Below, piece by piece: positions 12,464 through 39,520 of a DNA stretch of 64,000 nucleotides; position 1 is the first letter of the stretch, and the number at the start of each line of letters is the position of its first letter. The notes under the pieces are model-generated. The model saw only the letters and a list, made by a program, of their open reading frames with translations, made no database searches and was not told the origin of the DNA. Location: positions 87,490 to 151,489 of the forward strand of contig CAMTUG010000004.1 of assembly GCA_947084965.1 (NCBI GenBank), written 5' to 3'. Source of the stretch: an uncultured Parcubacteria group bacterium. GTDB lineage: Bacteria; Patescibacteriota; Patescibacteriia; UBA9934; CAMTUG01. Position numbers and translations under genes: made by a program.

Positions 12464-12552
12464 AGACCAAAACTCAAATCGGTTTTAAACATTGATTCTT
12501 GGATATTGAGACTTATTTGATGCTTGGTGCTTGTGATTTGGTGCTTAAATGC

Positions 12553-12585
12553 GAACGCCCCGACTGCCGTAGTGCAGCCGGGGAC
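12553..12585 (-). terminator. Hairpin just 3' of the high-GC gene 12615..13718
   Basis: CCCCGACTGCC...GCAGCCGGGG stem with one mismatch, immediately after the minus-strand stop. The T-tract is weak. Confidence 0.35.
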
Positions 12586-12614
12586 GTTGTCGCGATTGTG
12601 CCGTAGGGATGGAC

Positions 12615-13718
12615 CTACAGCGAGCAGACGGGCTCGGTCGAGCACGAGGCGACGAACTGGGCCTCACAGCCGCTCCCCGTGGAGATCTCGATGATCTCCA
12701 GGTCGCAGGAGCTGCCGGAGGCGTCGTAGTACACCGCGCTGTGATCCCCGTCGAGCGAGGAGCCCATGCAGGAGTACCGCGTGCTCGAGTACTCGAGCGA
12801 GTAGCGGCCGACGTAGTCGTCGTAGACCTCCTCCACCGTGAAGGACCAGTCCGCGCCGTCGTCCGACACGCTCGCGGTCGCCGAGGTGGTGTCCCACCAG
12901 TCGCCGAAGTCCTCGCAGGCCTCGTCGACCTCGTAGCCCACCGAGGCGCTCGAGCGGGTCGCGCTCGGCGTCACGGTGATGACGACGCAGTCGAAGCAGG
13001 GGGGCTCCTCGGTCTCGGTCGCGGTGTCGGTCTCGGCGGCGGTGTCCTCGGCCGTGTCGGTGTCGGTGTCCTCCTCGGTCGCGGTGTCCGCCGCGACGCC
13101 GGTGTCCTCGGTGATGGCTCCGCTGTCCGAGGCGGCGCCGGTGTCCGTCACGGTGCCGCTGTCGGCCTCCGCGTCGGTGTCCTCGTCGCCCTCGGCGGGC
13201 TCCTCGGTGTCGTCGGCCTCGGGGGCGCCGGTGTCGGTCTCGGTCTCGGAGCCGGTGTCGTCGGACGCGGGGATGTCGTCGCGGTTGAGGGGGTTCGAGC
13301 CCGCCTCGACCTCTTCCCCGTCGCTGTAGCCGTCGCCGTCGGTGTCCGAGTCGTACTTCTCCGTGCCGAGCTCGTTCTCCTCCGCGTCGGTCAGGCCGTC
13401 GCGGTCGGAGTCGGGGCTCTCCTCCTCGGGCTCCTCGGCGGCGGTGTCGACGGGCTCCTCGACCGGCTCCTCGATGTCGGTGTCCTCGGCCGGGTCGTCC
13501 GTGTCCTCCTCGGGCTCCTCGGTCTCGGAGTCGTCGCCTTCGGGGACCTCCTCCGCCTCCTCCTCCATCGGCACGCCGGTGTCGCTGATCACCCCGGTGT
13601 CGTCGGCCTCGGGGCTCTTGGCGCCCTCGATGACCATGGTGAAGTTGTCACAGCCGACGGAGAAGAGCGCGGCGAGGGTGGTCAGGACCGCTGACCGCGG
13701 GATCGTGAACAGTCGCAT
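12615..13718 (-). CDS. High-GC secreted lipoprotein with thrombospondin type 3-like Ca-binding repeats and an acidic low-complexity region
   Basis: Signal peptide with lipobox (LAALFSVGCDN). DxDxDGxxDxxE motifs such as DSDRDGLTDAEE and DSDTDGDGYSDGEE. GC3 is close to 100%. Confidence 0.6.
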   Translation of the reverse strand: MRLFTIPRSAVLTTLAALFSVGCDNFTMVIEGAKSPEADDTGVISDTGVPMEEEAEEVPEGDDSETEEPEEDTDDPAEDTDIEEPVEEPVDTAAEEPEEESPDSDRDGLTDAEENELGTEKYDSDTDGDGYSDGEEVEAGSNPLNRDDIPASDDTGSETETDTGAPEADDTEEPAEGDEDTDAEADSGTVTDTGAASDSGAITEDTGVAADTATEEDTDTDTAEDTAAETDTATETEEPPCFDCVVITVTPSATRSSASVGYEVDEACEDFGDWWDTTSATASVSDDGADWSFTVEEVYDDYVGRYSLEYSSTRYSCMGSSLDGDHSAVYYDASGSSCDLEIIEISTGSGCEAQFVASCSTEPVCSL

Positions 13719-13829
13719 TGGACCTCCAGTTTGCGTGAGAAACGTTCCGCGGTGTCCAGCCGCAAAACGCAGGGAACGGGCTTGTGGCCCGGTTAGCTTG
13801 GGTTCAAAACCCGGGGGAGCGAACGTCGA

Positions 13830-13858
13830 AATATAGCATATTTTAGCCCTTTTGTCAA
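13830..13858 (-). promoter_or_regulatory. Near-consensus sigma70 promoter for gene 12615..13718
   Basis: On the minus strand, TTGACA, then 17 nt (AAAGGGCTAAAATATGC), then TATATT; about 110 nt upstream of the start at 13718. Confidence 0.5.
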
Positions 13859-13912
13859 TGGTATAACGCTAGAATTAGCCTAAAAATAGGCAAAAACATA
13901 GTACTGGCCACG

Positions 13913-14695
13913 ATACCGGCTTCAGAAGCCGGTATCAGGAGGACATAAGTTAGAAACCGGAACAAAATCCAGGTACAATAAAAAAACTATGGCAATCACA
14001 AGGGACTTCAACTCGGGTAGCTATTACCACGTTTATAATCGAACCGTAGTTGGTACAAAACTTTTTAGATCATTTGCTGACCACCAACGTTTTTATGAAA
14101 ATCTTTACGTGTTTAACAATGCGAACTACCGTCATCGTGGTGGTGACCCAAGACGCGCCTACTATGAACTTGCAACTGCTGAAATTAACCGTGCACCCCT
14201 CGTTGAAATCGAATGTTTTATCCTCATGCCAGACCACTATCACTTAGTTCTCAAACAGCTACAAGAAAATGGCATATCGAAATTCATGCACCGACTAAGC
14301 ATGGGTTATGCAAACTATCTGAATCTAAAATATCAACGAACGGGACACGTTTTCGAAACAAAGTTCAAGGCGAGGCCGGTCGATGAACAGGAGCATTTCG
14401 ATCACTTACCACGTTATATTCATCTCAATGCCCTCGATCATAAATTGCCGGGCTGGAGAAATGGTTCGATCTCAGATTGGGCGCTGGCAAAAGCGATTCT
14501 CGATTCCTATCCATGGTCGAGTCATCATGTTTATTCAGGCTATGGACAGTCATTTGAAGTAATTAACGAGTCATTTGCTCGTGCTCGCTACCCTTCACCA
14601 AAGGACTACTTTACCGATCTACAAAACTGGTCAGGTCGATCAACCCTATCAAAACTTGATTCGTATTTCTGATACCGGCTTCTGAAGCCGGTATC
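13913..14695 (+). mobile_element. IS200/IS605-family (RAYT-like) transposase unit flanked by inverted REP-like palindromes
   Basis: ATACCGGCTTCaGAAGCCGGTAT at 13913-13935 and GATACCGGCTTCtGAAGCCGGTATC at 14671-14695. Both are perfect palindromes with complementary loop bases, i.e. inverted copies. Confidence 0.65.
13989..14672 (+). CDS. IS200-like / REP-associated tyrosine (Y1, HUH) transposase
   Basis: HUH motif MPDHYHLVL and C-terminal YIHLNALDH, which matches the IS200/RAYT YxHxNP(V/A) signature. It is low-GC in a high-GC neighbourhood. Confidence 0.75.
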   Translation: MAITRDFNSGSYYHVYNRTVVGTKLFRSFADHQRFYENLYVFNNANYRHRGGDPRRAYYELATAEINRAPLVEIECFILMPDHYHLVLKQLQENGISKFMHRLSMGYANYLNLKYQRTGHVFETKFKARPVDEQEHFDHLPRYIHLNALDHKLPGWRNGSISDWALAKAILDSYPWSSHHVYSGYGQSFEVINESFARARYPSPKDYFTDLQNWSGRSTLSKLDSYF

Positions 14696-14788
14696 ATCTT
14701 TTTAAACGCGAAGACGCCCACGGAAGTTGTCCGTGGGCGCCGCTCGGGGGCTCGAGTGTCGGCTCGAGCCGTTGTCGTGCCGGTGGGG

Positions 14789-17700
14789 CTAGATCCCCTG
14801 CCAGGCGTAGGTGGTCGCGGAGCTCTCGAAGATCTCCACGTCGCGGGTGTTGGCCGAGAAGACCGCGTTCAGCCAGCACTGCGGCGTCGTGCCCGTCGAG
14901 CCGTCGATCACGAAGAGGGAGAAGACCCCGTCCGTGATCGTGAAGCTGTAGGACCCGGTGCCGGTGTAGGGCAGGTACTGCATCGCCCCGCCGGCCGAGT
15001 AGTCGATGACCCCGATCTGGTCGCCCGAGGTGAGGGTCATCGCCGAGGTGCAGTCGATCAGCGAGCTCGGGTCATCCAGGCCGCCCGAGAGGGTGAGGAC
15101 CAGGAAGCCGCCGCTCGCGACACCGTCCACGGTGAAGAGGCAGGTCGCCTCGTCCACGACCCCGTCGCAGTCGTTGTCGACGCCGTCGTCGCAGGTTTCG
15201 GCCGCGTCGGGGTTGCTGAGCGCGAGACTGTCCTCGCAGTCGTCCCCGCCGCAGGCCTCGCTCACGAGGCCGTCGCCGTCCTCGTCGTCCTCGCAGGTCC
15301 CGGTGTCGCCGCCCGAGTCGCCGGTGTCGGAGGTCTCGCAGACCTCCTCGTCGACGTCACCGTCGCAGTCGTCGTCGAGGGTGTTGCAGTACTCCTCGGC
15401 GCCGGGGTAGCTGGTGCGCTGGTTGTCGTCGCAGTCGGTCGCGTCGGCGACGTAGCCGCTGGGCTGGTCGCAGGCCGCGGTGGCGGTGGCGGTCTCGTCG
15501 CCGAAGCCGTCGCCGTCGCCGTCCGGGTACCAGTCGCTGTCGTCGATCGCGTCGTCCTCGTCGACTTCGCCGTCGCAGTCGTCGTCCTGGCCGTTGCAGA
15601 ACTCGTCGGCGCCGGGGTAGCTGTCGTCGTCGCCGTCGTCGCAGTCCTCGCAGGCCGCGAAGCCGTCGAGGTCGGCGTCGTCGTACATCACCGAGCCGTC
15701 GCAGTTGTAGTCCGTGGGGTCGGTGCAGTCCGACTCGTCCGCGCCCGGGTTGTAGAGCGCGTCGCCGTCGTCGCAGTCGCCGCCGATCGCGACGTAGCCG
15801 CTCGGCGCGTCGCAGGCGATCTGGGTGACGCTGTCGTCACCGTACTCGTCGTCGTCCGCGTCCGCGTACCACGTCCCCGCGTCGATCGCGTCGTTCTCGT
15901 CGACGTCACCGTCGCAGTCGTCGTCGAGGCCGTTGCAGGTCTCGGTCGCGGCAGGACTCACGTCGACGTTGCCGTCGTCGCAGTCGCCGTCGTTCTCGGA
16001 GTACCCGTCGCCGTCCTCGTCGGAGGCGTCGGTCCCCTGGTCGACGTTGCCATCGCAGTCGTCGTCGAGGCCGTTCTCGATCTCCTCGGCGCCCGGGTAG
16101 GTCGTGCGCTGGTTGTCGTCGCAGTCGGTCGCGTCGGCGACGTAGCCGCTGGGCTGGTCGCAGGCCGCGGTGGCGGTGGCGGTCTCGTCGCCGAAGCCGT
16201 CGCCGTCGCCGTCCGGGTACCAGTCGCTGGCGTCCTCGTCGACCGTCCCGTCGCAGTCCCGGTCCACCCCGTCCTCGCAGTCCTGCGGGGCGTCGGGGTT
16301 GGTGCGGAACACGCTGTCGTCGCAGTCGCCGTCGTCCTCGGTCCAGCCGTCACCGTCGTCGTCGTAGGAGTCGGTGTTGTTGTCCACGACCCCGTCGCAG
16401 TCGTCGTCGGCGCCGTTGACGTACTCGGTCGCACCCGGGTGGGTGCTGCGGTCGAGGTCGGCGCAGTCGCCGTCGCACTCGGTGTAGCCGTCGCCGTCCG
16501 CGTCGACCATGTCGCCCGGGTCGCTGTCGTCGCAGTCGCTCCAGTCGTCGACGTAGCCGGTGGGCGCGTCGCACTCGATGTCCATGACGCTCGCGTCGCC
16601 GTAGCCGTCGCCGTCCGCGTCCGCGTACCAGGTCGAGGCGTCGATCGCCTCGTCCTCGTCGACGTCACCGTCGCAGTCGTCGTCGACCTCGTTGCAGGAC
16701 TCCGCCTCGGCGGGGCTCACCGAGGAGTCGAGGTCGTCGCAGTCGTCGTCGTTCTCGACGTAGCCGGTGGGGAGCGAGCAGGCGGCGTGGGTGTTGCCCG
16801 CGTCGCCGTAGCTGTCCCGATCGAGGTCCGCGTACCAGGTCGAGGCGTCGATCGCCTCGTCCTCGTCGACGTCACCGTCGCAGTCGTTGTCGATCGTGTC
16901 GCAGATCTCGCTGTCGGCGGGCGAGATCGCGGCGTCGTCGTCGTCGCAGTCGTTGGCGTCGGCGACGTAGCCGCTCGGCTGGTTGCAGGCGTAGTCGATC
17001 GCGTCCTCGTTGCCGAAGCCGTCGCCGTCCGCGTCCGCGTACCAGGTCGAGGCGTCGATCGCCTCGTCCTCGTCGACCGTGCCGTCGCAGTTGTCGTCGA
17101 CCTCGTTGCAGGTCTCGAGCTCGCCCGGGTTGACGCTCGCGTCGGTGTCGTCGCAGTCGGTGGCGTCGACGACGTACCCCGCGGGGATGGTGCAGGAGGT
17201 GAGCGCGTTGTCCACGTCGCCGTAGCCGTCGCCGTCCACGTCGCCGAAGAAGTCGATCGCGTCCACCGCGTCGTCCTCGTCCACGATCGCGTCGCAGTCG
17301 TCGTCCACGCCGTTGCAGGACTCGGACTGGCCGACGAAGATCTCGGCGTCGAGGTCGTAGCAGTCGCGGCTGTCGGTCACGTAGCCGTCCGGCTGGCTGC
17401 AGGCCTCGACGGGCGCGTTCAGGTCGCCCTGGCCGTCGCCGTCGAGGTCGGCGTAGAAGGTCGAGGTCACGCCCTCGTCGACCGTGCCGTTGCAGTTGTC
17501 GTCGCGGTCGTTGCAGGCCTCGGTCGCGCCGGGGTTGACGTCGGCGTCCCCGTCGTCGCAGTCGCTGTCGTCGGCGACGTAGTGGCTCGGCGCCACGCAG
17601 TCGTCGATCGCGTCCGCGGAGTCGCCGTAGCCGTCCTGGTCGAGGTCGGCGTACCAGGTCCCGAGGGCGTTCTCGTCGACCGTGCCGTTGCAGTTGTCGT

Positions 17701-17977
17701 CGCGGTCGTTGCAGGCCTCGGTCGCGCCGGGGTTGACGTCGGCGTCCCCGTCGTCGCAGTCGCCGTCGTTCTCCGAGTACCCGTCGCCGTCGTTGTCGAC
17801 CTCGTCGGGATCCGGCTGGTCGATGTTGACGCCGGTGTCGTTGATCGGGTCCTGGAACCCGATCGTCTCGCAGCCGGCGAGGGTGAGGGTGATGAGCAGC
17901 CCGCCGATCTTGGCGCGGGTGCTCGAGGAGGCGGCCTTGCGGACGCCGGACTTCTTGGTGAGACGGAACAGGTTCAT
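14789..17977 (-). CDS. High-GC lipoprotein built from about 20 MopE-like (putative metal-binding, PF11617-type) Cys/Asp-rich modules
   Basis: Signal peptide plus lipobox (LITLTLAGCET). Tandem modules DCDDxDAxVNPGAxExCNxxDDNCDGxVDE(D)xAIDAxTWYADADGDGYG. The minus strand has recognisable motifs; plus-strand frames are V/A/G/R low complexity. Confidence 0.7.
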   Translation of the reverse strand: MNLFRLTKKSGVRKAASSSTRAKIGGLLITLTLAGCETIGFQDPINDTGVNIDQPDPDEVDNDGDGYSENDGDCDDGDADVNPGATEACNDRDDNCNGTVDENALGTWYADLDQDGYGDSADAIDDCVAPSHYVADDSDCDDGDADVNPGATEACNDRDDNCNGTVDEGVTSTFYADLDGDGQGDLNAPVEACSQPDGYVTDSRDCYDLDAEIFVGQSESCNGVDDDCDAIVDEDDAVDAIDFFGDVDGDGYGDVDNALTSCTIPAGYVVDATDCDDTDASVNPGELETCNEVDDNCDGTVDEDEAIDASTWYADADGDGFGNEDAIDYACNQPSGYVADANDCDDDDAAISPADSEICDTIDNDCDGDVDEDEAIDASTWYADLDRDSYGDAGNTHAACSLPTGYVENDDDCDDLDSSVSPAEAESCNEVDDDCDGDVDEDEAIDASTWYADADGDGYGDASVMDIECDAPTGYVDDWSDCDDSDPGDMVDADGDGYTECDGDCADLDRSTHPGATEYVNGADDDCDGVVDNNTDSYDDDGDGWTEDDGDCDDSVFRTNPDAPQDCEDGVDRDCDGTVDEDASDWYPDGDGDGFGDETATATAACDQPSGYVADATDCDDNQRTTYPGAEEIENGLDDDCDGNVDQGTDASDEDGDGYSENDGDCDDGNVDVSPAATETCNGLDDDCDGDVDENDAIDAGTWYADADDDEYGDDSVTQIACDAPSGYVAIGGDCDDGDALYNPGADESDCTDPTDYNCDGSVMYDDADLDGFAACEDCDDGDDDSYPGADEFCNGQDDDCDGEVDEDDAIDDSDWYPDGDGDGFGDETATATAACDQPSGYVADATDCDDNQRTSYPGAEEYCNTLDDDCDGDVDEEVCETSDTGDSGGDTGTCEDDEDGDGLVSEACGGDDCEDSLALSNPDAAETCDDGVDNDCDGVVDEATCLFTVDGVASGGFLVLTLSGGLDDPSSLIDCTSAMTLTSGDQIGVIDYSAGGAMQYLPYTGTGSYSFTITDGVFSLFVIDGSTGTTPQCWLNAVFSANTRDVEIFESSATTYAWQGI

Positions 17978-18167: not shown

Positions 18168-18369
18168 GAAATCGCTAACGAAATCTTTAAAAGTCGATGC
18201 GGTGTCGGTGCGTGGGGTGCCAGCCTCTGAGACGTACCCAAAATGTATGGCGAAGAAGTGGCAGGGACCCGCAAACCGGCAGATCGCAAATTCTGTACGT
18301 TTTAAAAAGCGTGATGCCCTCGGGAGTGTCCCAAGGGCATCAGAGCGTCGATCTACCCGGCCCGGTTGA

Positions 18370-20975: not shown

Positions 20976-21023
20976 CGGCACCCACGCTTCGAAGTCTTCG
21001 AAGGGATGCCGGGCCGGGCAGGG

Positions 21024-21812
<789 letters not shown>

Positions 21813-31311: not shown

Positions 31312-31444
31312 TGACGAATGCTTTGAAAAACTCGAGATGCAAGGCGTGGGACAGCGAGCTCTGAGACGTAGGTAAATCCTACGTTGAGGAGCGAGCAGGG
31401 ACCCACAACACAGCAGATCGAGGAATTTCAAAGCATGAGTTTAT

Positions 31445-31826
31445 GGGGGTGTCGGGTATCGACGGGAGTTCATTTTCATGTGAGCAAGCCGAGGACGTAC
31501 GCTACCTCGTAAATACTGCGTGCAACGTAGATAACTGCCAATCTCATCACGAAACTTAGGAACGCGTATAGCGCTCCTGCGTTCGTACCAGCGTTCGCCT
31601 AAGGGCGAACCTGCACTTCCTCCACGATGCTCGATAGTGGATACGAAGTGTTATATATCGAGCTCGGGATTATCTCTTTCGATCGGATAATCTCTAAAGG
31701 CTAGATCGGAACCTTCTGGCGTCTTTTGTTCCGCCTTATTCGTCAGAAGTATTCAGCGGAACTACGCTTGTAGAAACACGTGGGGATTGCTTTCGCACAG
31801 GAGTTCAACTCTCCTCACCTCCACCA
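31445..31826 (+). ncRNA. ssrA: tmRNA (ssrA), one-piece
   Basis: The 5' end GGGGGTGTCGGGTATCGACGGG and the 3' end GGAGTTCAACTCTCCTCACCTCCACCA (T-arm plus acceptor) pair into an acceptor stem. It lies directly downstream of smpB. A candidate tag ORF ends ...AYSAPAFVPAFA-stop. Confidence 0.8.
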
Positions 31827-31889
31827 GTTCATATAACAGACTTTGCTTCGCACGTCTGTCAATCCGGTCAATCCATAAGAAACATTACA

Positions 31890-32441
31890 ATGCGCATTCA
31901 TCGTCACCGAAATCGTGCTCCGAAATTCGAAGCACCAACGTACCGCGTCAACGAACAGATCACCAACGAGACCGTTCGCGTGATCGACGAAGAGGGAGCT
32001 CCCCTTGGCGTCATCAAAACAACGGACGCTCTTGAACGTGCCCGCGAAGCAGGATTTGATCTCGTTGAAGTTTCCCCAAAGGCAGAACCGCCGGTCTGCA
32101 AATTCCTCGAGTACGGGGTTTTTAAATATCAAAAGGAAAAGGAAGCGCGTAAAGCCAAGGCTCAATCAAAGGAGGTGGAGATCAAAGGGATCCGCCTTTC
32201 TCTGCGCATCGGCGTTGGCGATTTGGAGACCCGCAAGAACCAGGCGCTCGGGTTTATGGAGCGCGGGGATAAGGTCAAAATCGAAATTGTGCTCCGTGGC
32301 CGTGAAAAAGCCCACGTCGATGTGGCCAAGGAAGTCATGACCAATTTTATGGAGTCCCTCAAAGCCACCTACCCCCTCCGGATTGAACAGCCGTTCCAGG
32401 CTCAAGCCGGCAGGTTGACAATGATAGTCGCTAGAGTGTAG
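31890..32441 (+). CDS. infC: Translation initiation factor IF-3
   Basis: RVNEQITNETVRVIDEEGAPLGV...FDLVEVSPKAEPPVCKFLEYGVFKYQ matches IF-3. An upstream non-ATG start is possible. Confidence 0.85.
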   Translation: MRIHRHRNRAPKFEAPTYRVNEQITNETVRVIDEEGAPLGVIKTTDALERAREAGFDLVEVSPKAEPPVCKFLEYGVFKYQKEKEARKAKAQSKEVEIKGIRLSLRIGVGDLETRKNQALGFMERGDKVKIEIVLRGREKAHVDVAKEVMTNFMESLKATYPLRIEQPFQAQAGRLTMIVARV

Positions 32442-32496
32442 GATGCGGCGGCATAGGAAAAGGTTAGAGGAAAGAGGAAAAAGTGAAGGAAATTGT

Positions 32497-32682
32497 ATGA
32501 ACAAAACGTATAAAGCACTGGCAAAACGGGTCACCGTGACCAAAACAGGCAAGGTGATCAAACGCAAAGCTGGCCAGGACCATTTTAATTCCCGCGAGAC
32601 CGGCAAGGAACGCCGCAATAAGCGCTCGGATATGGGCGTTTCCAAGCCGATCAACAAGCTCGTCGTGGATAATCTTCAATAA
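32497..32682 (+). CDS. rpmI: 50S ribosomal protein L35
   Basis: MNKTYKALAKRVTVTKTGKVIKRKAGQDHFNSRE. Confidence 0.8.
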   Translation: MNKTYKALAKRVTVTKTGKVIKRKAGQDHFNSRETGKERRNKRSDMGVSKPINKLVVDNLQ

Positions 32683-32684
32683 GT

Positions 32685-33029
32685 ATGCCACGAGTTAAAC
32701 GAGGCGTCATGCACGCCAAAACGCGCCGCAACTTGTTAGCCAAAGTGAAGGGCTACAAGCCAGGTCGCCGCAACAAGATCAAGCAGGCCCGTGTCGCCTT
32801 CTTGAAAGCCGGTGTCAACGCCTACACCTCGCGCAAGTTGAAAAAGCGCGTCAACCGCGGACTCCAGAACATCCGCATCAACGCCGCCGCTCGCGAAAAT
32901 GGCACGATCTACAGCCGCCTGATCGACGCCATGAAGAAAGCGAATATCGAGCTTGATCGCAAAGTGTTAGCCCAGATCGCCGCGGCACACCCAGCCGTCT
33001 TCTCGAAGATCGTCGCCGCGACCAAATAA
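32685..33029 (+). CDS. rplT: 50S ribosomal protein L20
   Basis: MPRVKRGVMHAKTRRNLLAKVKGYKPGRRN; conserved infC-rpmI-rplT gene order. Confidence 0.9.
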   Translation: MPRVKRGVMHAKTRRNLLAKVKGYKPGRRNKIKQARVAFLKAGVNAYTSRKLKKRVNRGLQNIRINAAARENGTIYSRLIDAMKKANIELDRKVLAQIAAAHPAVFSKIVAATK

Positions 33030-33039
33030 AAGAAAATTG

Positions 33040-33085
33040 ATGAGCCCCGCGGAAGTTCTCCGCGGGGCTCTTCTTGTTGTTGTCG
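33040..33085 (+). terminator. Rho-independent terminator of the infC-rpmI-rplT operon
   Basis: GAGCCCCGCGGA-AGTTC-TCCGCGGGGCTC followed by TTCTTGTTGTTGT. Confidence 0.6.
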
Positions 33086-33094
33086 ATCGCTCGT

Positions 33095-33880
33095 TCAGCG
33101 ACCGACCGATCCGCCCGGTCGCCCCTCTCCACCACTTCCCTTGCAGAGCTGAGGTGCGTCCGACTTGGTCGTGCACATGTACTCGACCGCAGCGCAGAGA
33201 CGCCCCGGATCCTGATCCTCGGCCGCGTCGACCAGGTAGGCCTTGCCACCAGGGAAGGTGTAGATCTTCATTCCGGCGTTGACCATCTTGCCACCGGGGT
33301 CGCCACCCTGGGCCTGGTTGCATTCCTTGAGCGCCTTCTCCGCCTTCTTGGCCTGGCGCTGGGACTCTTCGGCCTGGCGCTCGGCCTTGGCCGCATCGGC
33401 CTGAGCTGCCGCGAGTTCTGCGGACATCTTGATGATCTGCTGGCGCAGCTCCTTGGAGCTCGCCTGGCACTCCTTCAGCTCCTTGCGGAGCTTGGGGGCT
33501 TCGGCCAGCGCTTCGATGTCGCCGTCGGACAGATCCTGATTGGCGAGCTCGGTCATCGCCGCCAGGGTCTGGGCGGCCTTCTGCTTGGCTGCGGCCTCCA
33601 GCCGTGCGAGCTCTGCCCGCTTCTGCTTGCTGGCGGCCAGATCGGTCTCCGCCAGCTGCCGCGCCTCCATCTCGACCTTCAGTGCCTGCGCCTTGGCCTC
33701 GAGCTCGACCTCCTTCTCCTTGAGGTCAGCGAACGAAGTGGCGATGATGAGCATCAGCACCCGAATGATCGCCACCTGCCCGAGAACGACGACCAAGAGG
33801 GCGATGTTGAAGCCCGAGAGGATGTCGGACTGCGAGTCGCTCGGGCTGGAGTGAACCCGCTCGTCGAATTCTTCGCTCAC
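33095..33880 (-). CDS. High-GC MotB/ExbD/TolR-like single-TM protein with a long coiled coil and a Cys-containing C-terminal domain (no peptidoglycan-binding domain)
   Basis: TM SDILSGFNIALLVVVLGQV has an Asp at the cytoplasmic end, as in MotB (ADFMTAMMAFFLV), followed by about 150 aa of coiled coil. Its start overlaps (ATGA) the stop of the upstream MotA-like gene. Confidence 0.4.
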   Translation of the reverse strand: MSEEFDERVHSSPSDSQSDILSGFNIALLVVVLGQVAIIRVLMLIIATSFADLKEKEVELEAKAQALKVEMEARQLAETDLAASKQKRAELARLEAAAKQKAAQTLAAMTELANQDLSDGDIEALAEAPKLRKELKECQASSKELRQQIIKMSAELAAAQADAAKAERQAEESQRQAKKAEKALKECNQAQGGDPGGKMVNAGMKIYTFPGGKAYLVDAAEDQDPGRLCAAVEYMCTTKSDAPQLCKGSGGEGRPGGSVGR

Positions 33881-34974
33881 TTGGCACCTCCCTTCTCGCC
33901 CGTCTTGATCTCGAGCACGTAGCCGCCTTCGACCAGCTTCATCTTCAGCGTTCCGCCGTCGAGCCCGCCGATCAGCTCGGCCAGGCGCTCGAAGCGCGGC
34001 CCGAAGACCTCGGTCATCGTGCGCATGATCGCCGCGTTGGCGCGACCGGCGCTCCGCAGCTCGCCCGCGACATCGGCGATCTTCTCGGTCGCTTCGATCA
34101 GCGGCTTGGCCAACTCGTTGTTGGCGGCGAGCGTCAGGTAGGTTGACACCTGGCTCGGCAGGTGCAGCTTGGCCATGATCTCGTCCTGGATCCAGGACTC
34201 GACCTCGGTCAGCGAATCCATCTCCGCGCTCTTGCGGTCGTCGATGAACCGCCCGAGCCAGGCCTTGGCCCCCCAGCCGATGAGGGAGGTGATGAAGGCG
34301 GTCATGACCGTGTACAGGTCGATCGTCGAGGAGTTGGCCGAGAGCTCGGTGAAGAGCTGGAAGGCGTCGAAGCTCTCCTTGGTGATCGTCGGCATCTTGA
34401 AGAGGCCGACCGCCTGCGCCAGGAAGGTCATGAAGCCGATGATCGTACCGATCGCGCCCTCGAACGAGAGCGTCTCGACCTCGGCCTTGATCGTGCCGAA
34501 GCGTTGAGCGACCTTGCGGCGCTCGATCGTCATCTTGGCATCGACGAACTTCTGGATCGACCCTTCGTCCGCGGCGTTGGTGATCTTGGTCAGCAGCGCC
34601 GCGATCAGCCCGTGGACGAGCACCGCCCCGCCGTTCTTGCGCGGGTCGGGGTCGATCAGATCAGGGATGTGCTCGCGGTCGATCACCGGCGTGGTGCCGT
34701 AGAACTTCGGCGGGGCAAAGACCCGGGACTTGGGGATCCGCCAGACGATGTAGCCGAAGAGCTTGAACACCATGTAGATCGTGAAGACCCAGGCCATGGT
34801 GTTGAACGCTCCGGACGCCGTCGCGAAGTAGGAGTAGCCGACGACACCCGACACGCCGGTCAGGGCGATGCCGAACAGGGACCAGATCATGCGAACCTCG
34901 GGGGTGGAGAGATGATGAGACGAAACGATCTGCGGGTTGTCCCGCCGCTTTTGTGCCCGAATACTCGGTCGCAA
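33877..34974 (-). CDS. High-GC MotA/TolQ/ExbB-family proton-channel protein (4 TM)
   Basis: 2 TM, then a cytoplasmic loop, then 2 TM. TM3 reads AIGTIIGFMTFL, matching the family motif LGLLGTV(I/W)G(I/M)xxAF. Confidence 0.5.
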   Translation of the reverse strand: MRPSIRAQKRRDNPQIVSSHHLSTPEVRMIWSLFGIALTGVSGVVGYSYFATASGAFNTMAWVFTIYMVFKLFGYIVWRIPKSRVFAPPKFYGTTPVIDREHIPDLIDPDPRKNGGAVLVHGLIAALLTKITNAADEGSIQKFVDAKMTIERRKVAQRFGTIKAEVETLSFEGAIGTIIGFMTFLAQAVGLFKMPTITKESFDAFQLFTELSANSSTIDLYTVMTAFITSLIGWGAKAWLGRFIDDRKSAEMDSLTEVESWIQDEIMAKLHLPSQVSTYLTLAANNELAKPLIEATEKIADVAGELRSAGRANAAIMRTMTEVFGPRFERLAELIGGLDGGTLKMKLVEGGYVLEIKTGEKGGAK

Positions 34975-34995
34975 AGGCAGAGAGGCAAACGGCAG

Positions 34996-35024
34996 AAATT
35001 ACCAGGGATTTCCATTTCTGTCAA
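34996..35024 (-). promoter_or_regulatory. Consensus-like sigma70 promoter for the MotA-like operon
   Basis: On the minus strand, TTGACA, then 17 nt (GAAATGGAAATCCCTGG), then TAATTT. Confidence 0.45.
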
Positions 35025-35049
35025 TGAAGGGATCCTCAACCTATTTCCC

Positions 35050-35078
35050 TTGACTTTTTCACTAAAGCTAGATATCTT
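35050..35078 (+). promoter_or_regulatory. Divergent sigma70-like promoter for gene 35145..36941
   Basis: TTGACT, then 17 nt (TTTTCACTAAAGCTAGA), then TATCTT. Confidence 0.45.
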
Positions 35079-35144
35079 CTGAGGTCCGCGTTCTTACGTG
35101 GCAACGTTCCCGACAGATCCCATAATCCCAACCAGAGGTCCGCG

Positions 35145-36941
35145 ATGCCTGCCAAAACCCGCCTGAACTGTACGACCGTCCCCGCCGGCCGCACCCTCGC
35201 TGCCGAAGGGACGACAACGCTCACCCTGGGGGTGAACGCGCTGAGCGCCCCCAACTTCAAGTCGAGGGCGGCGCTGATCCAGGACGAGACCAAGGCCCCG
35301 GGCCTGCGCTTCGTCGATCCGGCGACCGGTGACAAGGTCGCCTACCTCGAAGTCGAGATCGTGGGCGGCCGGGTCGAAGTGACGTTCGTCTTCCTCGCGC
35401 GGTGCGAGGCGACCGAGATCGCCTTCGTCCTCGAGCCCCACTCCTCGAAGTTCCAGGAGATCGAGGTTCGCCTGCCCGTCGCGGTCGCGGCCCCGCCCCC
35501 GTCCCCGACCACGCCGGCCGAAGTCGTGGTGGAGCTCACCGACACGCTCCAGCTCATCCACAACGACGGCAGCGTGGCCAAGGGGCTGATGTTCGGCGAG
35601 AGCCAGCCGATCTACCTCGAGGCGAAGGACGCCACGGGACTGCCGATCGCGGTCCGTGCCAAGGTCTCGGTCGTCACGACGATCTCGACGAACGCCGTGA
35701 TCCGCATGGCCGCAGACGCGATCGTGGGCCTGACCGAGCTCGACCTGGAGACGGATGCGCTGAGCGGCAAGTCCGCGCCGTTCATCCTCTGCGACACCGG
35801 GCTCGGCGACGCAACGACGATCCTCACGATCGAGCGACTGGACGAGCTGTTCCCGCCGATCGAAGTCGTGCTGGAGATGTTGCCGTCGCCCCCGCCCCCA
35901 CCCCCGCCCCGCTACGGTCCGCCGCCGGCGTCTCGCCGCTCCACCCCTCGGGTGCGTGCTGCAGAAACGGATGCCCCGGAGCCGGGACATGTGCGCATGG
36001 CCCCTGTGGCCATCGCACCGCCTCTCCCCCTGCCGCCCCCGGACCCCACGATCGTGATTCCGCCCCCGGCCCCGATCGTTCCATCACCCGCCACCGTGGC
36101 TCCACCGCGTCCGGCTGCCCCCCGGCCCCCGCCGACCATCTCGGCCCCGCCCCTGCTCCTCGATCCCGAGTCCGAAAGGAGGAGGGAGCTCGAAGACCTG
36201 CTCGCGACCGCTCGCGGACGGGTCGGAGAACTCGAGCGTGAAGCTGGAACTCGGGACACGCAGATCGCGGGGCTCATTCGTCAGAACGCCGAGCTCGAGC
36301 GCCGGCTCTACGAGAAGTCCGAGGAACACATGAAGGAACGCATTCTCCGCACTCGTCGCGAGCGCGAGGATCAGGAACGGATGGAGCGCATCGGAGTGCT
36401 GGGCCGCGAGATCGAGCGGCTGCGGGGCGTGATCCGCCAGCTGGAGAACACCCCGCCGTCGGCCCGACGTCGGCCCGACGATCCGCCGACCCCACTCGCG
36501 AAGCCCCGATCGGTCCTGCGACTCACCGCCGCCGGAGTGATCACCGCACTCGTCGCGATCCTGATCGCTACGGCCCTTCTCCCCTCGGAGAAGAAGGAGG
36601 TCCTGGCCGCGCAGGCTCGCCGCGGGTGCGTGGTGCTGATGGGTGAAGAGCCCGAGAGCATCACGCCGAGTGGCGCGTCGAAGGCCCAGAAGCCCGCCCC
36701 GGACAGTCCCAAGCTCGAGGTGGTCGTGGTGGAAGACGGCCCCCCGCCGCCCCCGCCCACCAACACCTTCGACCCGCGGAGCCTGTGCACCGAGACGTTC
36801 TCGGACCCGTACGCCACCCGTACGGCCACCTACTGGGGATGCCCCGGCGACGCGGAAGCCCGCTGGGTCTGCCCGATGAAGTGGGTGGACACCGCAAGTC
36901 GATCCTTCGAGATCGACGTCCCTACCTGTCGCAAGCAGTAG
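35145..36941 (+). CDS. High-GC Pro-rich, coiled-coil protein with a C-terminal TM segment and a Cys-containing extracytoplasmic tail
   Basis: Polyproline tracts (PSPPPPPPPRYGPPP), an ERRLYEKSEEHMKER coiled coil and TM VITALVAILIATALL. Confidence 0.5.
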   Translation: MPAKTRLNCTTVPAGRTLAAEGTTTLTLGVNALSAPNFKSRAALIQDETKAPGLRFVDPATGDKVAYLEVEIVGGRVEVTFVFLARCEATEIAFVLEPHSSKFQEIEVRLPVAVAAPPPSPTTPAEVVVELTDTLQLIHNDGSVAKGLMFGESQPIYLEAKDATGLPIAVRAKVSVVTTISTNAVIRMAADAIVGLTELDLETDALSGKSAPFILCDTGLGDATTILTIERLDELFPPIEVVLEMLPSPPPPPPPRYGPPPASRRSTPRVRAAETDAPEPGHVRMAPVAIAPPLPLPPPDPTIVIPPPAPIVPSPATVAPPRPAAPRPPPTISAPPLLLDPESERRRELEDLLATARGRVGELEREAGTRDTQIAGLIRQNAELERRLYEKSEEHMKERILRTRREREDQERMERIGVLGREIERLRGVIRQLENTPPSARRRPDDPPTPLAKPRSVLRLTAAGVITALVAILIATALLPSEKKEVLAAQARRGCVVLMGEEPESITPSGASKAQKPAPDSPKLEVVVVEDGPPPPPPTNTFDPRSLCTETFSDPYATRTATYWGCPGDAEARWVCPMKWVDTASRSFEIDVPTCRKQ

Positions 36942-36959
36942 GGCCCTCACCGCGATGAC

Positions 36960-37003
36960 TCCGTCCTTGGTACGCAAGGACGGAGTTCGCTTTTTTAGCC
37001 AAA
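36960..37003 (+). terminator. Rho-independent terminator of gene 35145..36941
   Basis: ACTCCGTCCTT-GGTACGC-AAGGACGGAGT followed by TCGCTTTTTTAG. Confidence 0.55.
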
Positions 37004-37035
37004 TCGGATTATCATAAAGAGATAAAGTTGAATCT

Positions 37036-37920
37036 ATGAATGAATACACCCCTCGTCCAAAGCCCGAGTTTAAAGGAGAAGCAGAAGATCACGGCGTTGT
37101 TGAATACAAAGCCAGATCAAATCCGGCACTCCATCCAGAAAAACCAAAGCCTATTATTAAGGGGAGCTCCGAGCGTGTCCGTCAGGAAGCTGTTGGTCGT
37201 GTCGAAGCGCGTCTACAGGCCGGAATCGATCTTGATGTCTACAAAGAACAACTCGAAGCCGATCTCCTCCAAACTGAAGATGAGCTTGAACAGATGGACA
37301 ATGATGCCGACATGTTTGCAGAAACGTTTAAAGATGCTGAAAAACTGCGTCTGGAACTTGATCACGTTACGTTTCTCCGCGACAATCCAGCAGAGCTGAA
37401 ACGCGTCGTTGGAACGATCGTTGATAAATTGAGCACCGGTGCGTCAGGCGAAACGACGTTTAGAGTCGCACCAAAAGCAGAGACAACAAAGCCAGTCGCC
37501 CGAGGAGAAAGACCGCAGAGCGCCAAGCCACCGGAAGCCCAACAAGCAAAAGCATCGTTGGAATCAACCGTTGATAAATTTGTCGGCTGGCTGAAAGCAA
37601 AATTTGCGCCAAAGGAAAAACCAGCGGTGCCTCTAACCGCCTACGATCGAGAACAGCCACAACGTAAAGCGGCAGCGATGGCCAACAAAGCGGCGGAATC
37701 AAAAATGCTTCAGGAACGTGCAACGATTGAACGAAAAATTTCTGCCGATCCGCGGGTCATTCGCCTTGAGCGAATCATCTCTGAAGCGAAACTCGAAGGC
37801 AATCGCAAACGCTACCAAGCCGAACTCAACGCCCTCAAAGCCACATTGCGTAAACAGGAATCATTTGATGATCTCCCAGAGATTGAACCAGAAGCGCTGG
37901 AGCACCTCGCGAGCAAATAG
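37036..37920 (+). CDS. Hypothetical charged/coiled-coil protein
   Basis: 294 aa, Lys/Glu-rich and moderate-GC, with no recognisable motif. Confidence 0.45.
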   Translation: MNEYTPRPKPEFKGEAEDHGVVEYKARSNPALHPEKPKPIIKGSSERVRQEAVGRVEARLQAGIDLDVYKEQLEADLLQTEDELEQMDNDADMFAETFKDAEKLRLELDHVTFLRDNPAELKRVVGTIVDKLSTGASGETTFRVAPKAETTKPVARGERPQSAKPPEAQQAKASLESTVDKFVGWLKAKFAPKEKPAVPLTAYDREQPQRKAAAMANKAAESKMLQERATIERKISADPRVIRLERIISEAKLEGNRKRYQAELNALKATLRKQESFDDLPEIEPEALEHLASK

Positions 37921-37940
37921 TCGCACCGCCCAGAGGAATC

Positions 37941-37972
37941 ACGACCAACACCCGTTGGTCGTTTTTCGTCTA
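37941..37972 (+). terminator. Rho-independent terminator of gene 37036..37920
   Basis: ACGACCAAC-ACC-CGTTGGTCGT followed by TTTTCG. Confidence 0.5.
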
Positions 37973-37983
37973 TAAAATTCGAA

Positions 37984-38026
37984 AGCCGCCCCGGAGAAGG
38001 TCGAGGTGACCTTCTCCGGGGCGGCG
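37984..38026 (-). terminator. Long GC hairpin 3' of the POT transporter gene (convergent terminator)
   Basis: GCCGCCCCGGAGAAGGTC-GAGGT-GACCTTCTCCGGGGCGGC, about 18 bp, followed on the minus strand by TTTCGAATTTTATAG. Confidence 0.45.
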
Positions 38027-38050
38027 AGGAGCAGCTCCGGACGCACGCCG

Positions 38051-39391
38051 TTACGCGGCGTCCTGGACGTAGTTGACGACCTTGTACCGACGGGCGATCG
38101 GGATGTAGACGAGCGCCGCCACGAGCATCAGCCCTGCGAAGAACAGGAAGTAGTCGGGGCCCTCGAGCATGCTGGTGCCATCGTCGCGCAGGATCACCGT
38201 GTTCACCAGCGCGGTGAAGGCGTTCCCGAGCGAGATCGCCAGGAGATCGAGGGACATGACCGAGCTCTTCATCGTCTTCGGCGCCTGCGTGTAGCAGAAC
38301 TCGATCAGCGTCACCGAGAGGAAGACCTCCGCGGCGGTGAGGATCACGAAGCAGAGGATCTGCCAGGCGATCGAGGGCTGCCCGCCTGCGTCGATGAGCA
38401 TCTGGACGTAGGCGCAGATGAGGAACGGCACCACCGTCAGGAAGAGGCCGATTCCGATCTTGCGCAGGGGCGAGAGCGGGAAGACGCGGCTGAGGAGTGG
38501 GTAGAGGGCGTAGGTGAAGAGCGGGATGTAGAGCATCACGAGGAACGGGTTGACGCCCTGGATCTGGGCGGACATGAGCTCGAAGCCCAGGACGGTGCGG
38601 TCCATCTTCTCGGCCTGCAGCACCCAGGCCGATCCACTCTGCTCGTAGAGCGAGGAGAAGATCGCGCTGAAGGCAATGATGACCGAGAGGCGGGCCAGAG
38701 TCTTGATCCCCTCGCCGCTGAAGGTCTCGCGCAGGAACGTCAGGCCGCCGGGCGGCACGTGGACGAAGCGGTTGCGGCCGAGCCAGAAGGCGACGGTGGC
38801 GATGAACATCAGGATGCCAGGCACCGCGAAGGCGACCCGCGGGCCGTAGTTCTCGAGCAGCCAGGGGGTGGCGAGCATCGCCAGCCCGCCGCCCATGTTG
38901 ATCGCGAAGTAGAACCAGTTGAACATCTCCGCCATGCGATGGGCGTTGCCCTTGCCGAACTGGTCGCCGAGGTGAGCCGCGACGCACGGCTTGATCCCGC
39001 CCGCGCCGATGGCGATGAGACCGAGGCCGATGGCGAGCCCGGTGCGGGTCTCGTCGAGCGCGAGCGCCAGGTGGCCGAAGCAGTAGACGACCGAGAGCGC
39101 CATGATCGTGCGGTACTTGCCGAGGATGGTGTCGGCGAGCAGCGCCCCGAAGATCGGGAGGAAGTACACCGCCGAAGCGAAGGTGTGGTACCAGACCATG
39201 GCGTCCGCCTCGCTCATCGGCGCGAGCGCGCCGCTGTCGTCGAGGAGGTACTTGGTCATGAAGATCACCAGGATGCCGCGCATCCCGTAGTACGAGAACC
39301 GCTCTGCGGCCTCGTTCCCGATGATGAACGGAATCCCCGGAGGGATGCCGGTCGCCTCTTGCGAAGGCGCCGTTCGACGCATGACGGACAT
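38051..39391 (-). CDS. High-GC POT/PTR2-family proton-dependent oligopeptide transporter
   Basis: IIGNEAAERFSYYGMRGILVIFM (ExxERFxYY motif) and about 12 TM. The start is taken at the internal MSVMRR. Confidence 0.75.
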   Translation of the reverse strand: MSVMRRTAPSQEATGIPPGIPFIIGNEAAERFSYYGMRGILVIFMTKYLLDDSGALAPMSEADAMVWYHTFASAVYFLPIFGALLADTILGKYRTIMALSVVYCFGHLALALDETRTGLAIGLGLIAIGAGGIKPCVAAHLGDQFGKGNAHRMAEMFNWFYFAINMGGGLAMLATPWLLENYGPRVAFAVPGILMFIATVAFWLGRNRFVHVPPGGLTFLRETFSGEGIKTLARLSVIIAFSAIFSSLYEQSGSAWVLQAEKMDRTVLGFELMSAQIQGVNPFLVMLYIPLFTYALYPLLSRVFPLSPLRKIGIGLFLTVVPFLICAYVQMLIDAGGQPSIAWQILCFVILTAAEVFLSVTLIEFCYTQAPKTMKSSVMSLDLLAISLGNAFTALVNTVILRDDGTSMLEGPDYFLFFAGLMLVAALVYIPIARRYKVVNYVQDAA

Positions 39392-39520
39392 GGGAACCTC
39401 GTGGCTTGCGCTCCGTTCGCGGTGAATCGCCGCTGTGGGCGATCGTCGGTCAAGACGGAGAACCGACAGCATCCGATCTGGACGCGACCGTATTTAACCT
39501 GGGGGCATGTGGAAAGTCAA

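Follow-up and report, generated by a model that had tools for sequence, protein, structure and literature searches.

Genes saturated in G and C at third codon positions, with strong Shine–Dalgarno sites, in recurrent slots of Candidatus Uhrbacteria genomes

How do ten genes with G or C at almost every third codon position come to stand, singly and in small groups, among genes of ordinary composition in the same contig? The question is raised by a stretch of 64,000 nucleotides (the whole of which we call the window) from contig CAMTUG010000004.1 of assembly GCA_947084965.1, the backbone of which is Candidatus Uhrbacteria (Patescibacteria), from groundwater. A first reading of the letters alone (the original prediction) had described five GC-rich islands, here numbered 1 (12.5–13.8 kb), 2 (14.7–23.7 kb), 3 (29.8–30.7 kb), 4 (33.0–37.0 kb) and 5 (37.9–39.5 kb), with cargo that looked Myxococcota-like. 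We refer to the backbone genes as class I, and to the genes that are outliers in GC3 (the GC content of third codon positions; GC1 and GC2 are used likewise for the first and second) and are led by Shine–Dalgarno sites as class II. Our results make it very probable that a two-class genome architecture common to Uhrbacteria exists; the explanation that we favour, to which we give a probability of about 0.5, is sustained selection on the synonymous sites and transcripts of class II envelope genes, some of them anciently foreign.

Scanned at 500-bp resolution, the GC content of the window alternates between ~0.50 and blocks of 0.63–0.75 at the places of the islands, and a 150-bp scan set the high-GC blocks at 12551–13700, 14701–17950, 18351–20650, 20901–21800, 22101–23650, 29851–30600, 33051–34650, 35101–36850 and 37951–39400, with a GC content of 0.65–0.73 against ~0.52 in backbone coding sequence. 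Each block holds a single frame with GC3 near 1, which is also the frame bearing the Pfam domains, signal peptides and lipoboxes; most of the island genes lie on the minus strand, and the long open reading frames (ORFs) opposite them are antisense artefacts of GC3-rich DNA. In their true frames and with corrected starts, the ten island genes between 12.6 and 39.4 kb have GC3 values of 0.84–0.98 (median 0.95), compared with 0.37–0.82 (median 0.59) for 36 backbone genes of the window, and the two sets show zero overlap (Mann–Whitney U = 360 of a possible 360, p = 1.8e-6). The third bases in the islands are C 0.62, G 0.32, A 0.02 and T 0.03; GC3 is already 0.8–0.97 within the first 33 codons and stays high up to the stop codon. 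The abrupt compositional switch is thus real and tracks gene boundaries.

The islands are not, however, five single transcription units, as had been proposed, because the ten genes form at least eight. Island 2 contains four genes with spacers of 227–392 bp and a spacer GC content of 0.52–0.55, and island 4 consists of a two-gene operon and a divergent gene. Nor are the surroundings as AT-rich as had been claimed: the 100 nt on the two sides of the island genes have a GC content of 0.59 and 0.58, compared with 0.45 in backbone spacers, and lie far under GC3. The hairpin terminators at the boundaries were found as described, and the islands are indeed interleaved with backbone genes (the Y1 transposase gene and smpB-ssrA-infC-rplT).

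The island genes also differ from their neighbours in their initiation signal, GGAG or GGAGG standing 5–10 nt upstream of the start codon in all ten, compared with one of the 36 backbone genes. For most class II genes we found promoter-like sites near the consensus and terminator-like sites; in the island spacers they occur in some, not for each gene. Among sigma-70-type promoter matches between 12 and 32 kb, three of the best four precede island genes, two of the three agreeing in 11 of 12 positions, and the leaders implied by the island matches are ~105 to 430 nt long. Terminator-like hairpins follow genes 3, 4, 6 and 9, and an Rfam scan of the window gave tmRNA as its sole match. The features between 12.6 and 39.4 kb are as follows.

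12615–13718, minus strand: class II gene 1, an acidic lipoprotein of 367 aa with a bacterial TSP3 repeat; GC3 0.98; Shine–Dalgarno CTGGAGG; TAG stop.
13830–13858, minus strand: near-consensus promoter TTGACA-17-TATATT, agreeing in 11 of 12 positions and with a TG extension, ~105 nt ahead of gene 1.
13912–14695, plus strand: unit of the IS200-like Y1 transposase (gene 13989–14672), a backbone separator; GC3 0.39.
14789–17977, minus strand: class II gene 2, a Cys/Asp-rich lipoprotein of 1062 aa with 13 PF11617 (MopE) repeats; GC3 0.98; Shine–Dalgarno AGGAGG; TAG stop.
18312–18342, minus strand: terminator-like hairpin just after gene 3 (14-bp stem and T run).
18370–20727, minus strand: class II gene 3, a lipoprotein of 785 aa with eight MopE repeats and a TD repeat; GC3 0.94; the start is the ATG at 20727.
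20859–20888, minus strand: promoter-like site upstream of gene 3.
20928–20942: terminator-like hairpin of gene 4.
21024–21812, minus strand: class II gene 4, a lipoprotein of 262 aa with a (TD)n repeat; GC3 0.98; Shine–Dalgarno AAGGAG; TAG stop.
21935–22030, minus strand: long imperfect hairpin upstream of gene 4; -42.4 kcal/mol, z = -6.9.
22184–23638, minus strand: class II gene 5, a secreted near-orphan of 484 aa; GC3 0.97; Shine–Dalgarno AAGGAGG; TAG stop.
23795–24103, minus strand: upstream region of gene 5, with promoter-like TTGACA-17-TATTCT at 24075–24103 and a second long hairpin at 23795–23895, z = -6.6.
24308–29711, minus strand: class I block of 23S-IVP, Wzz/GNVR, 23S-IVP, PDZ protease, DUF5656-like, two unknown genes and AI-2E transporter; GC3 0.44–0.67; Shine–Dalgarno site only at 25406–25771; gene order kept in 50–65 Uhrbacteria loci.
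29788–30720, plus strand: unit of class II gene 6, 228 aa (ORF 29960–30646); GC3 ~0.95; Shine–Dalgarno GGAGG; TAG stop; promoter TTGACA-17-TATATT at 29788–29816, leader ~135 nt, terminator-like hairpin at 30695–30720.
30868–33029, plus strand: class I block of smpB, tmRNA (31445–31826), infC, rpmI and rplT; GC3 0.51–0.76.
33042–33070, no strand assigned: bidirectional terminator-like hairpin between rplT and the convergent class II operon.
33095–34890, minus strand: class II operon of a MotA-like pair, namely a 337-aa membrane protein (33877–34890; GC3 0.94) and its 261-aa partner (33095–33880; GC3 0.84; one transmembrane segment, coiled coil); the two ORFs (genes 7 and 8) overlap by 4 bp.
35145–36941, plus strand: class II gene 9, a Pro-rich protein of 598 aa; GC3 0.85, falling to ~0.7 in the middle third.
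36957–36987, plus strand: terminator-like hairpin of gene 9.
37036–37920, plus strand: backbone gene of 294 aa between islands 4 and 5; GC3 0.43; terminator-like hairpin at 37941–37962.
38051–39391, minus strand: class II gene 10, a POT/PTR2 peptide transporter of 446 aa; GC3 0.95, GC1 0.59, GC2 0.42; TAA stop.

The source is a metagenome-assembled genome (MAG), in which fragments of a GC-rich organism might have been joined into an Uhrbacteria contig. Such a chimera would need ~16 junctions, every one within a spacer, and contigs of the Logan collection, made by a second assembler from run ERR3478686, are 100% identical to the window over 21611–36745 and 36716–49391, crossing the borders of islands 3 and 5 on either side, together with the left border of island 4 and the right border of island 2. 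Spacers inside and outside the islands have repeat families in common, the part of the claim about AT-rich spacers that stood, and the same architecture occurs in dozens of independent MAGs from other studies. The probability of a chimera is therefore close to nil; the original prediction had likewise judged a simple chimera unlikely. The Logan assembly breaks inside the Pro-rich gene at 35145–36941, where the two contigs share 30 bp (one k-mer, 36716–36745); this may be a graph branch or strain variation.

Two of the repeats deserve a description. The Y1 transposase gene is flanked by perfect 27-nt palindromes, GATACCGGCTTCAGAAGCCGGTATC, at 13912–13938 and 14669–14695, with a third copy at 4685–4708, which looks like a REP/RAYT-type arrangement (repetitive extragenic palindromes with their associated tyrosine transposase). 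A family of long imperfect hairpins, GAAAGTGGTAAGCAGTAAGTGG, lies at 21935–22030, 23795–23895, 25372–25411, 25770–25815 and 29745–29776 (z about -6.7); two intact copies stand upstream of class II genes, and the family also occurs next to backbone genes. The half-arms at 25770–25815 and 25372–25411 bracket the 23S-IVP gene at 25406–25771, as if this ORF were placed in the loop of the hairpin, by analogy with an rRNA intervening sequence. Within the islands, two neighbouring lipoprotein genes contain tandem GACACC-type repeats (20509–20664 and 21447–21690) that code for (Thr-Asp)n linkers, and these tracts are likely to be length-variable.

In order to compare the window with its relatives, we scanned for IF3 with one genome per species, which gave 80 loci whose IF3 is 54–70% identical to that of the window. 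Their informative labels are Candidatus Uhrbacteria or Patescibacteria group, many of the others being the evidently generic 'uncultured Gammaproteobacteria'. The order Wzz, PDZ protease, DUF5656-like, AI-2E and then smpB, ssrA, infC, rpmI and rplT is kept in 50–80 of the loci. Genes of the relatives were called by a rule combining GC3 rank with the composition of the first two codon bases, and an outlier was defined as a gene within 10 kb of infC whose GC3 is 0.85 or more and exceeds the median of its locus by 0.22 or more.

GC3 outliers were present in 36 of the 80 Uhrbacteria loci, against backgrounds of 0.35–0.62, and mostly in two slots, one beyond the Wzz/PDZ block and the other directly after rplT, which in the window hold islands 2 and 4. 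When slot genes were compared regardless of their own GC3, the first gene after rplT had a median excess over core genes of +0.15 (84% positive, n = 43, p = 9e-9) and the first gene beyond Wzz/PDZ an excess of +0.14 (n = 47, p = 5e-6); control non-core genes elsewhere had an excess of 0.00, with 4% above +0.2. In one locus (L063) with a background of 0.30–0.42, a MopE lipoprotein reaches a GC3 of 0.91 and a secreted protein 0.90. The contents of the slots are mostly non-homologous between species, while GC3-elevated genes fill them in most relatives; most outliers are orphans, and BLAST and jackhmmer together recover only the MopE family and three small clusters. Secreted-type N-termini were found in 42 of 63 outliers and 289 of 975 other genes (p = 6e-9), and lipoboxes in 27 of 63 and 35 of 975, respectively.

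The link to initiation holds throughout the lineage. When genes encoding an N-terminal hydrophobic segment are compared, a Shine–Dalgarno site precedes 40 of 48 outliers and 53 of 401 of the remaining genes (odds ratio 38, p = 2e-25), and the fraction with a site climbs with GC3 excess (0.14, 0.11, 0.29, 0.59, 0.85). Predicted lipoproteins split in the same way, those with a site having a GC3 of 0.8–1.0 and those without it the background value. Core genes have a site in 2–5% of cases, alike in low-, mid- and high-GC Uhrbacteria. A TATAAT-like -10 hexamer ends 4–13 nt before the ATG in 33 of 66 smpB, 42 of 63 AI-2E and 34 of 49 Wzz orthologues; across operon-first core genes the distance peaks at 6–10 nt and the hexamer is present in 50–69% of species, compared with none of 43 class II genes. 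A -10 box at this distance, with no Shine–Dalgarno site, implies a leaderless mRNA for operon-first class I genes, and the promoter geometry suggests that leaderless mRNAs are the default in the lineage. Class II genes differ further in their stop codons, ending in TAG, normally the rarest bacterial stop codon, in 40 of 62 cases (65%), compared with 159 of 686 class I genes and 34 of 108 genes of GC-rich Uhrbacteria. We found no description of GC3-extreme genes, of a coupling between Shine–Dalgarno sites and GC3, or of leaderless dominance in bacteria of the candidate phyla radiation (CPR) in the searchable literature.

Are the island genes, then, imports from a GC-rich donor? The cargo was largely as the original prediction had it. 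The MopE assignment (PF11617, 'putative metal-binding motif', here the repeated 30-residue Cys/Asp motif) stands at 339.9 bits over 13 repeats for gene 2 and 227.5 bits over eight repeats for gene 3, against a Pfam gathering cut-off of 27; the TSP3 repeat was confirmed, and the POT transporter matches PF00854 at 262.7 bits, against a cut-off of 27, with a co-hit to MFS_1 and thousands of homologues. The MotA/ExbB-like assignment has support only at the level of the fold. The model of the 337-aa protein (predicted local distance difference test, pLDDT, 69) has MotA, ExbB, TolQ, PomA or ZorA chains as all of its top 37 matches in the PDB, at E-values of 0.08–0.5 and TM-scores of at most 0.5; across three orthologues, the 261-aa partner carries D-[IV]-L-x-G ahead of its transmembrane segment, and neither protein of the pair has a family match among Pfam, NCBIfam or PADLOC profiles. 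With no profile match and E-values in this range, we take 'MotA/ExbB-like' for genes 7 and 8 as a lead rather than as family membership.

A best-match check on four cargo proteins brought no donor to light. The best non-self matches of the POT protein are 58–63% identical and lie in ordinary non-CPR contigs; in two that we examined, the local GC content is 0.57–0.58 and the GC3 of the POT gene 0.54–0.78. Relatives of the MopE protein in Joint Genome Institute (JGI) metagenomes are at most 49% identical. The MotA-like protein has four homologues among 5.8 billion proteins, the best non-self identity being 48%, and the 484-aa protein has two, at 34% and 31%, in an exhaustive HMMER search of 1.84 billion representatives, and none by word-indexed search (its AlphaFold model, with a pLDDT of 34, was not used). 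Thus, none of the four has a match above 63% identity in 5.8 to 15 billion proteins, a collection that included run ERR3478686, which also yielded the Logan contigs at 100% identity to the window. Scans of 2.9 million viral contigs with three class II queries gave no relatives, and no integrase, tRNA or flanking direct repeats were found at the island boundaries; the sole tRNA-like gene is the tmRNA gene, inside the backbone block, and the Y1 transposase gene has its own hairpin ends and backbone composition. We found no evidence for recent import in these sequence comparisons, and no recent donor was detectable. The proposal of Myxococcota-like import is therefore unsupported, because there is no close donor, because MopE relatives elsewhere carry the GC3 of their own genomes (0.29–0.37 in low-GC contigs, 0.85–0.98 in GC-rich ones), showing that the family is not intrinsically GC3-rich, because the codon preferences described below are shared with rplT and infC, because the MotA-like gene of the window is unlike its homologue from a truly GC-rich contig (L090, below), and because the island genes are part of a class found throughout the lineage, with Shine–Dalgarno sites, long leaders and TAG stops.

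The MotA-like pair, which also occurs in other loci, allows a closer comparison of composition.

L086, rplT 77% identical to that of the window: MotA-like gene also next to rplT; GC1/GC2/GC3 0.61/0.41/0.64; partner GC3 0.60.
L087: MotA-like gene; GC1/GC2/GC3 0.59/0.44/0.74.
Window: MotA-like gene; GC1/GC2/GC3 0.55/0.43/0.94; lysine share of lysine plus arginine, K/(K+R), 0.60; combined share of Phe, Tyr, Met, Ile, Asn and Lys (FYMINK) 0.29.
L090, a truly GC-rich contig: MotA-like gene; GC1/GC2/GC3 0.76/0.45/0.97; K/(K+R) 0.04; upstream GC 0.74; G-ending codons preferred.

L090 is JGI 3300061641, Ga0597090_0348060, a 1.7-kb contig with a GC content of 0.73 that carries the MotA-like gene and its partner, and hence the family also occurs in a truly GC-rich organism. 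The copy in the window has the GC3 of a 73%-GC genome, but the GC1, amino acids and flanks of a 50%-GC genome. Amelioration acts on synonymous sites first and cannot yield such a composition. In L086, the genes adjoining the pair have GC3 values of 0.46–0.49 and the GGAGG site is retained. The much lower GC3 of the syntenic orthologues (0.60–0.64) suggests that, in at least one family, GC3 can rise in place.

These results bear on the possibility of repeated horizontal import, in which each Uhrbacteria lineage would go on taking up autonomous surface-protein cassettes (promoter, Shine–Dalgarno site, ORF and terminator) into a few permissive slots from a GC-rich, Shine–Dalgarno-using donor pool (such as hosts, neighbours or a GC-rich CPR lineage), the cassettes still having the composition of the donor without special maintenance. 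Such import would account for a GC shift of the whole autonomous unit, with flanks of 0.58 and with GC1, GC2 and amino acids like those of a 63–68% GC genome, for the recurrence of the same trait set across species and for slots that are variable and rich in orphans; POT clearly has non-CPR relatives, and the MopE relatives, for the most part in non-CPR contigs of uniformly high GC content, share the TAG and C-ending tendencies. However, no donor above 63% was found for the four cargo proteins, and at such divergence synonymous sites are saturated, so that, without maintenance, decay to the host background is expected. The MotA-like and POT genes keep host-like amino acids and GC1 at a GC3 of 0.94–0.95, the reverse of the order that amelioration theory, reportedly set out by Lawrence and Ochman in 1997, would give, and the syntenic MotA-like orthologue stands at 0.60–0.64. 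Neither integrase, tRNA nor direct repeats mark the boundaries, and the preference for C over G fits the translation genes of Uhrbacteria, not GC-rich L090. We consider repeated import unlikely, if still deserving of some weight.

Codon preferences give a second line of evidence on the nature of the pressure. Among G/C-ending codons, class II genes prefer C over G (Val 0.59–0.64, Thr 0.61–0.69, Ala 0.58–0.70) and use AGC for ~35% of Ser, both on any background. Uhrbacteria rplT and infC share the two preferences, whereas other backbone genes, GC-rich Uhrbacteria and L090 do not; this match argues for a long residence under the decoding preferences of the lineage itself. The shift extends to synonymous first positions, class II genes using CTN over TTR for Leu (TTR 1–7%) and CGN over AGR for Arg (AGR 5–9%), and, less strongly, to the untranslated flanks (GC content 0.58–0.59).

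Ordinary translational selection, with class II genes encoding top-expressed major surface proteins in optimal codons, would explain the shared C-ending and AGC preferences, and near-consensus promoters, strong Shine–Dalgarno sites and strong terminator-like hairpins would be in keeping with it. In contrast, rplT and infC themselves have a GC3 excess of ~0.00 and deplete G-ending codons (GCG 0.16, GGG 0.10, CGG 0.07), which class II uses two to four times more, and they favour GAA, AAA and CAA where class II has GAG at 0.87, AAG at 0.97 and CAG at 0.94. Class II is thus not simply hyper-optimised. In addition, a place among the top-expressed proteins is unlikely for a POT transporter or a stator-like pair, and the selection strengths that Sharp and colleagues are said to have estimated in 2005 for fast-growing bacteria lie below that required here. 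Taken as a whole, this explanation seems to us very unlikely.

GC-biased gene conversion, or biased repair, at hot spots would require that hypervariable surface-protein slots recombine often through natural transformation, a W-to-S conversion bias then raising their GC content. The outliers do lie in variable slots with conserved flanks, the spacers adjoining them are slightly raised in GC (0.51–0.52 compared with 0.45), GC3 shows no relaxation at the 5' ends of the ORFs, and synonymous first positions are also shifted. A conversion bias is blind to frame and strand, yet the excess of C over G at four-fold sites follows the coding strand, on both DNA strands, and TAG is preferred over TGA; these two observations argue against any frame- or strand-blind mutation bias or biased gene conversion, as do the unshifted GC1 and amino acids of the MotA-like and POT proteins. 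The MotA-like family of the window, with GC1 of 0.55 and K/(K+R) of 0.60, is more AT-type than its orthologues, and the flanks have a GC content of 0.52–0.59 where GC3 is 0.95. Conversion would also leave the tight link to Shine–Dalgarno sites and leaders unexplained, and its effects in bacteria, as Lassalle and co-workers reportedly found in 2015, amount to a few percent of GC3. We regard it as distinctly improbable.

Sustained selection on class II genes remains the reading that we prefer. The proteins have diverged far past synonymous saturation, so that a GC3 of ~0.95 is no undecayed relic, and we infer a sustained fixation bias. On this reading, class I genes lack a Shine–Dalgarno site, often look leaderless when first in an operon and have the GC3 of the genome background. 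Class II genes are autonomous units with a long leader, a strong GGAG or GGAGG, G or C at nearly every synonymous site and mostly TAG; their products are mainly lipoproteins, secreted and membrane proteins, fast-evolving or orphan, and the genes sit in a few variable slots between conserved housekeeping operons. The fixation bias would most likely be selection on the transcript, favouring GC-rich, Shine–Dalgarno-dependent mRNAs for envelope proteins, and the benefit might be mRNA stability or separation from leaderless initiation. POT, and probably the MopE proteins, may have entered the lineage through old horizontal transfer. As a wider proposal, which we hold only tentatively, there would be two expression regimes in Uhrbacteria, perhaps also in other Parcubacteria, with transcript selection holding GC3 near 1.0 against backgrounds of 0.35–0.88.

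Several observations weigh against sustained selection. The pressure reaches beyond codons, leaders and trailers having a GC content of ~0.58, near that of the spacers of GC-rich Uhrbacteria (0.575). The class II aggregate (GC1 0.65, GC2 0.49, K/(K+R) 0.40) resembles the proteomes of GC-rich Uhrbacteria, which could reflect a foreign or GC-rich history, or else surface proteins rich in Ala, Gly, Asp and Thr; we rejected aggregate amino-acid composition as a test between hypotheses because protein type confounds it. Regression of class II GC3 on the background, as a way of telling an equilibrium reached in place from a fixed donor composition, gave a slope of 0.95 ± 0.24, a value that false-positive Shine–Dalgarno calls and the ceiling at 1.0 confound. 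In non-CPR contigs of uniformly high GC content, MopE genes share the use of TAG (TAG 17 : TGA 15 : TAA 0) and a C preference of 0.70 (L118 is not CPR), and thus part of the shared trait set may travel with families; a common external gene pool would also give shared Shine–Dalgarno, leader, TAG and C-over-G traits. Selection so strong, with a logit offset of ~2–3 over background by our own estimate, would be unusual for slow-growing CPR bacteria, and the rise of GC3 in place is known from a single gene family. Finally, leaderless status comes from promoter geometry rather than from transcripts, and the anti-Shine–Dalgarno motif is missing in some Parcubacteria (PMC9297842), a source that gives nothing specific to Uhrbacteria on this motif.

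The arrangement has partial likenesses to known systems. As in classical genomic islands, there are sharp departures in GC content and codon usage, with accessory, surface-linked cargo placed between conserved genes. Unlike them, the units here lack integrase, tRNA and direct repeats at their boundaries, have no donor that could be detected, form single transcription units instead of blocks, fill the same slots in many species and have a same-position orthologue with near-normal GC3; they are also GC-rich, and accessory genes are usually AT-rich. Phage morons, described by Hendrix, Juhala and colleagues, are autonomous promoter–ORF–terminator units of deviant composition that often encode lipoproteins or surface proteins, and several island genes likewise have their own promoter-like site, Shine–Dalgarno site, terminator-like hairpin and deviant composition. 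The island genes differ from morons in their chromosomal place beside smpB, infC, rplT and an envelope operon, outside any prophage, and in having no relatives in the viral contigs scanned.

O-antigen and capsule loci resemble the islands in their conserved flanks, variable surface content and lasting atypical composition, and the neighbourhood here is one of Wzz, Wzy and glycosyltransferase genes. Those loci, however, deviate in AT content, up or down, over the whole block and code for enzymes, whereas in the window GC3 is saturated gene by gene, is tied to the mode of initiation and belongs to structural or secreted proteins. Among genomes poor in Shine–Dalgarno sites, Bacteroidota have few, rpsU keeping one; there, as here, most genes lack a site and a minority has a strong one. 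The link of the site to saturated GC3, TAG and long leaders is, by contrast, undescribed in the searchable literature, and the default mode in Uhrbacteria seems to be a leaderless mRNA, not a leader that lacks the site. Expression-driven codon classes, known from Sharp and Li and from Medigue's 'class II/III' genes in E. coli, are likewise discrete classes in one genome, with a C-ending preference that is here partly shared with translation genes; the amplitude here is far larger, and the direction at Lys, Glu and Gln and at G-ending codons is contrary to that of translation genes.

Compositional islands are routinely read as recent transfer and used to decontaminate bins, a practice that in Uhrbacteria would mislabel native envelope genes; composition filters could strip class II genes from MAGs, and gene callers with one model will mis-call them, as long antisense ORFs are open across all. 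A leaderless default together with leadered, Shine–Dalgarno-led surface genes would mean two translation-initiation regimes in CPR bacteria, whose protein synthesis is little known directly and whose ribosomes are already known as unusual. If the two-regime reading is true, no sharper split in codon usage within one genome would be known in bacteria, and the split would offer a built-in means of regulating or insulating the synthesis of surface proteins. A GC3 of 0.95–1.0 against a background of 0.35–0.6 is a natural test of the strength of synonymous selection or of conversion bias, and the class II products (Cys/Asp lipoproteins, orphan secreted proteins, the stator-like pair and the peptide transporter) are the likely interface with hosts or phages.

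Beyond the islands, the window contains a diversity-generating retroelement at 49673–53803. Its reverse transcriptase gene lies at 49673–50833 on the minus strand (RVT_1, E = 2e-23), its template repeat at ~51146–51277 and its variable repeat at 51599–51730, in the 3' end of a 740-aa gene (51581–53803, minus strand). The two repeats differ by 22 mismatches over 134 aligned columns, 20 of the 22 at a plus-strand T, that is, a gene-strand A. The conserved envelope operon contains, as insertions, two paralogous genes of the PF05635 four-helix-bundle family (24308–24679 and 25406–25771), which are 72% identical along 240 nt. This family also provides the Avd accessory protein of retroelements, but the two genes lie 25 kb away from the reverse transcriptase gene. 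We rejected the retroelement and the Avd-like 23S-IVP genes as causes of the GC3 pattern, adenine mutagenesis being confined to the variable repeat.

The retroelement is part of a defence and mobile block at 41695–63881, which also contains ParB-like/N6_N4 methyltransferases, HTH_Tnp, DUF2779, GmrSD (47276–49438, GC3 0.82), a type I restriction–modification system (hsdR 54450–57503, hsdS and hsdM), DUF5655, a large serine recombinase (61263–62636) and AAA_13. Between 41.7 and 49.4 kb, GC3 values of 0.70–0.82 also occur in this block, in genes without Shine–Dalgarno sites.

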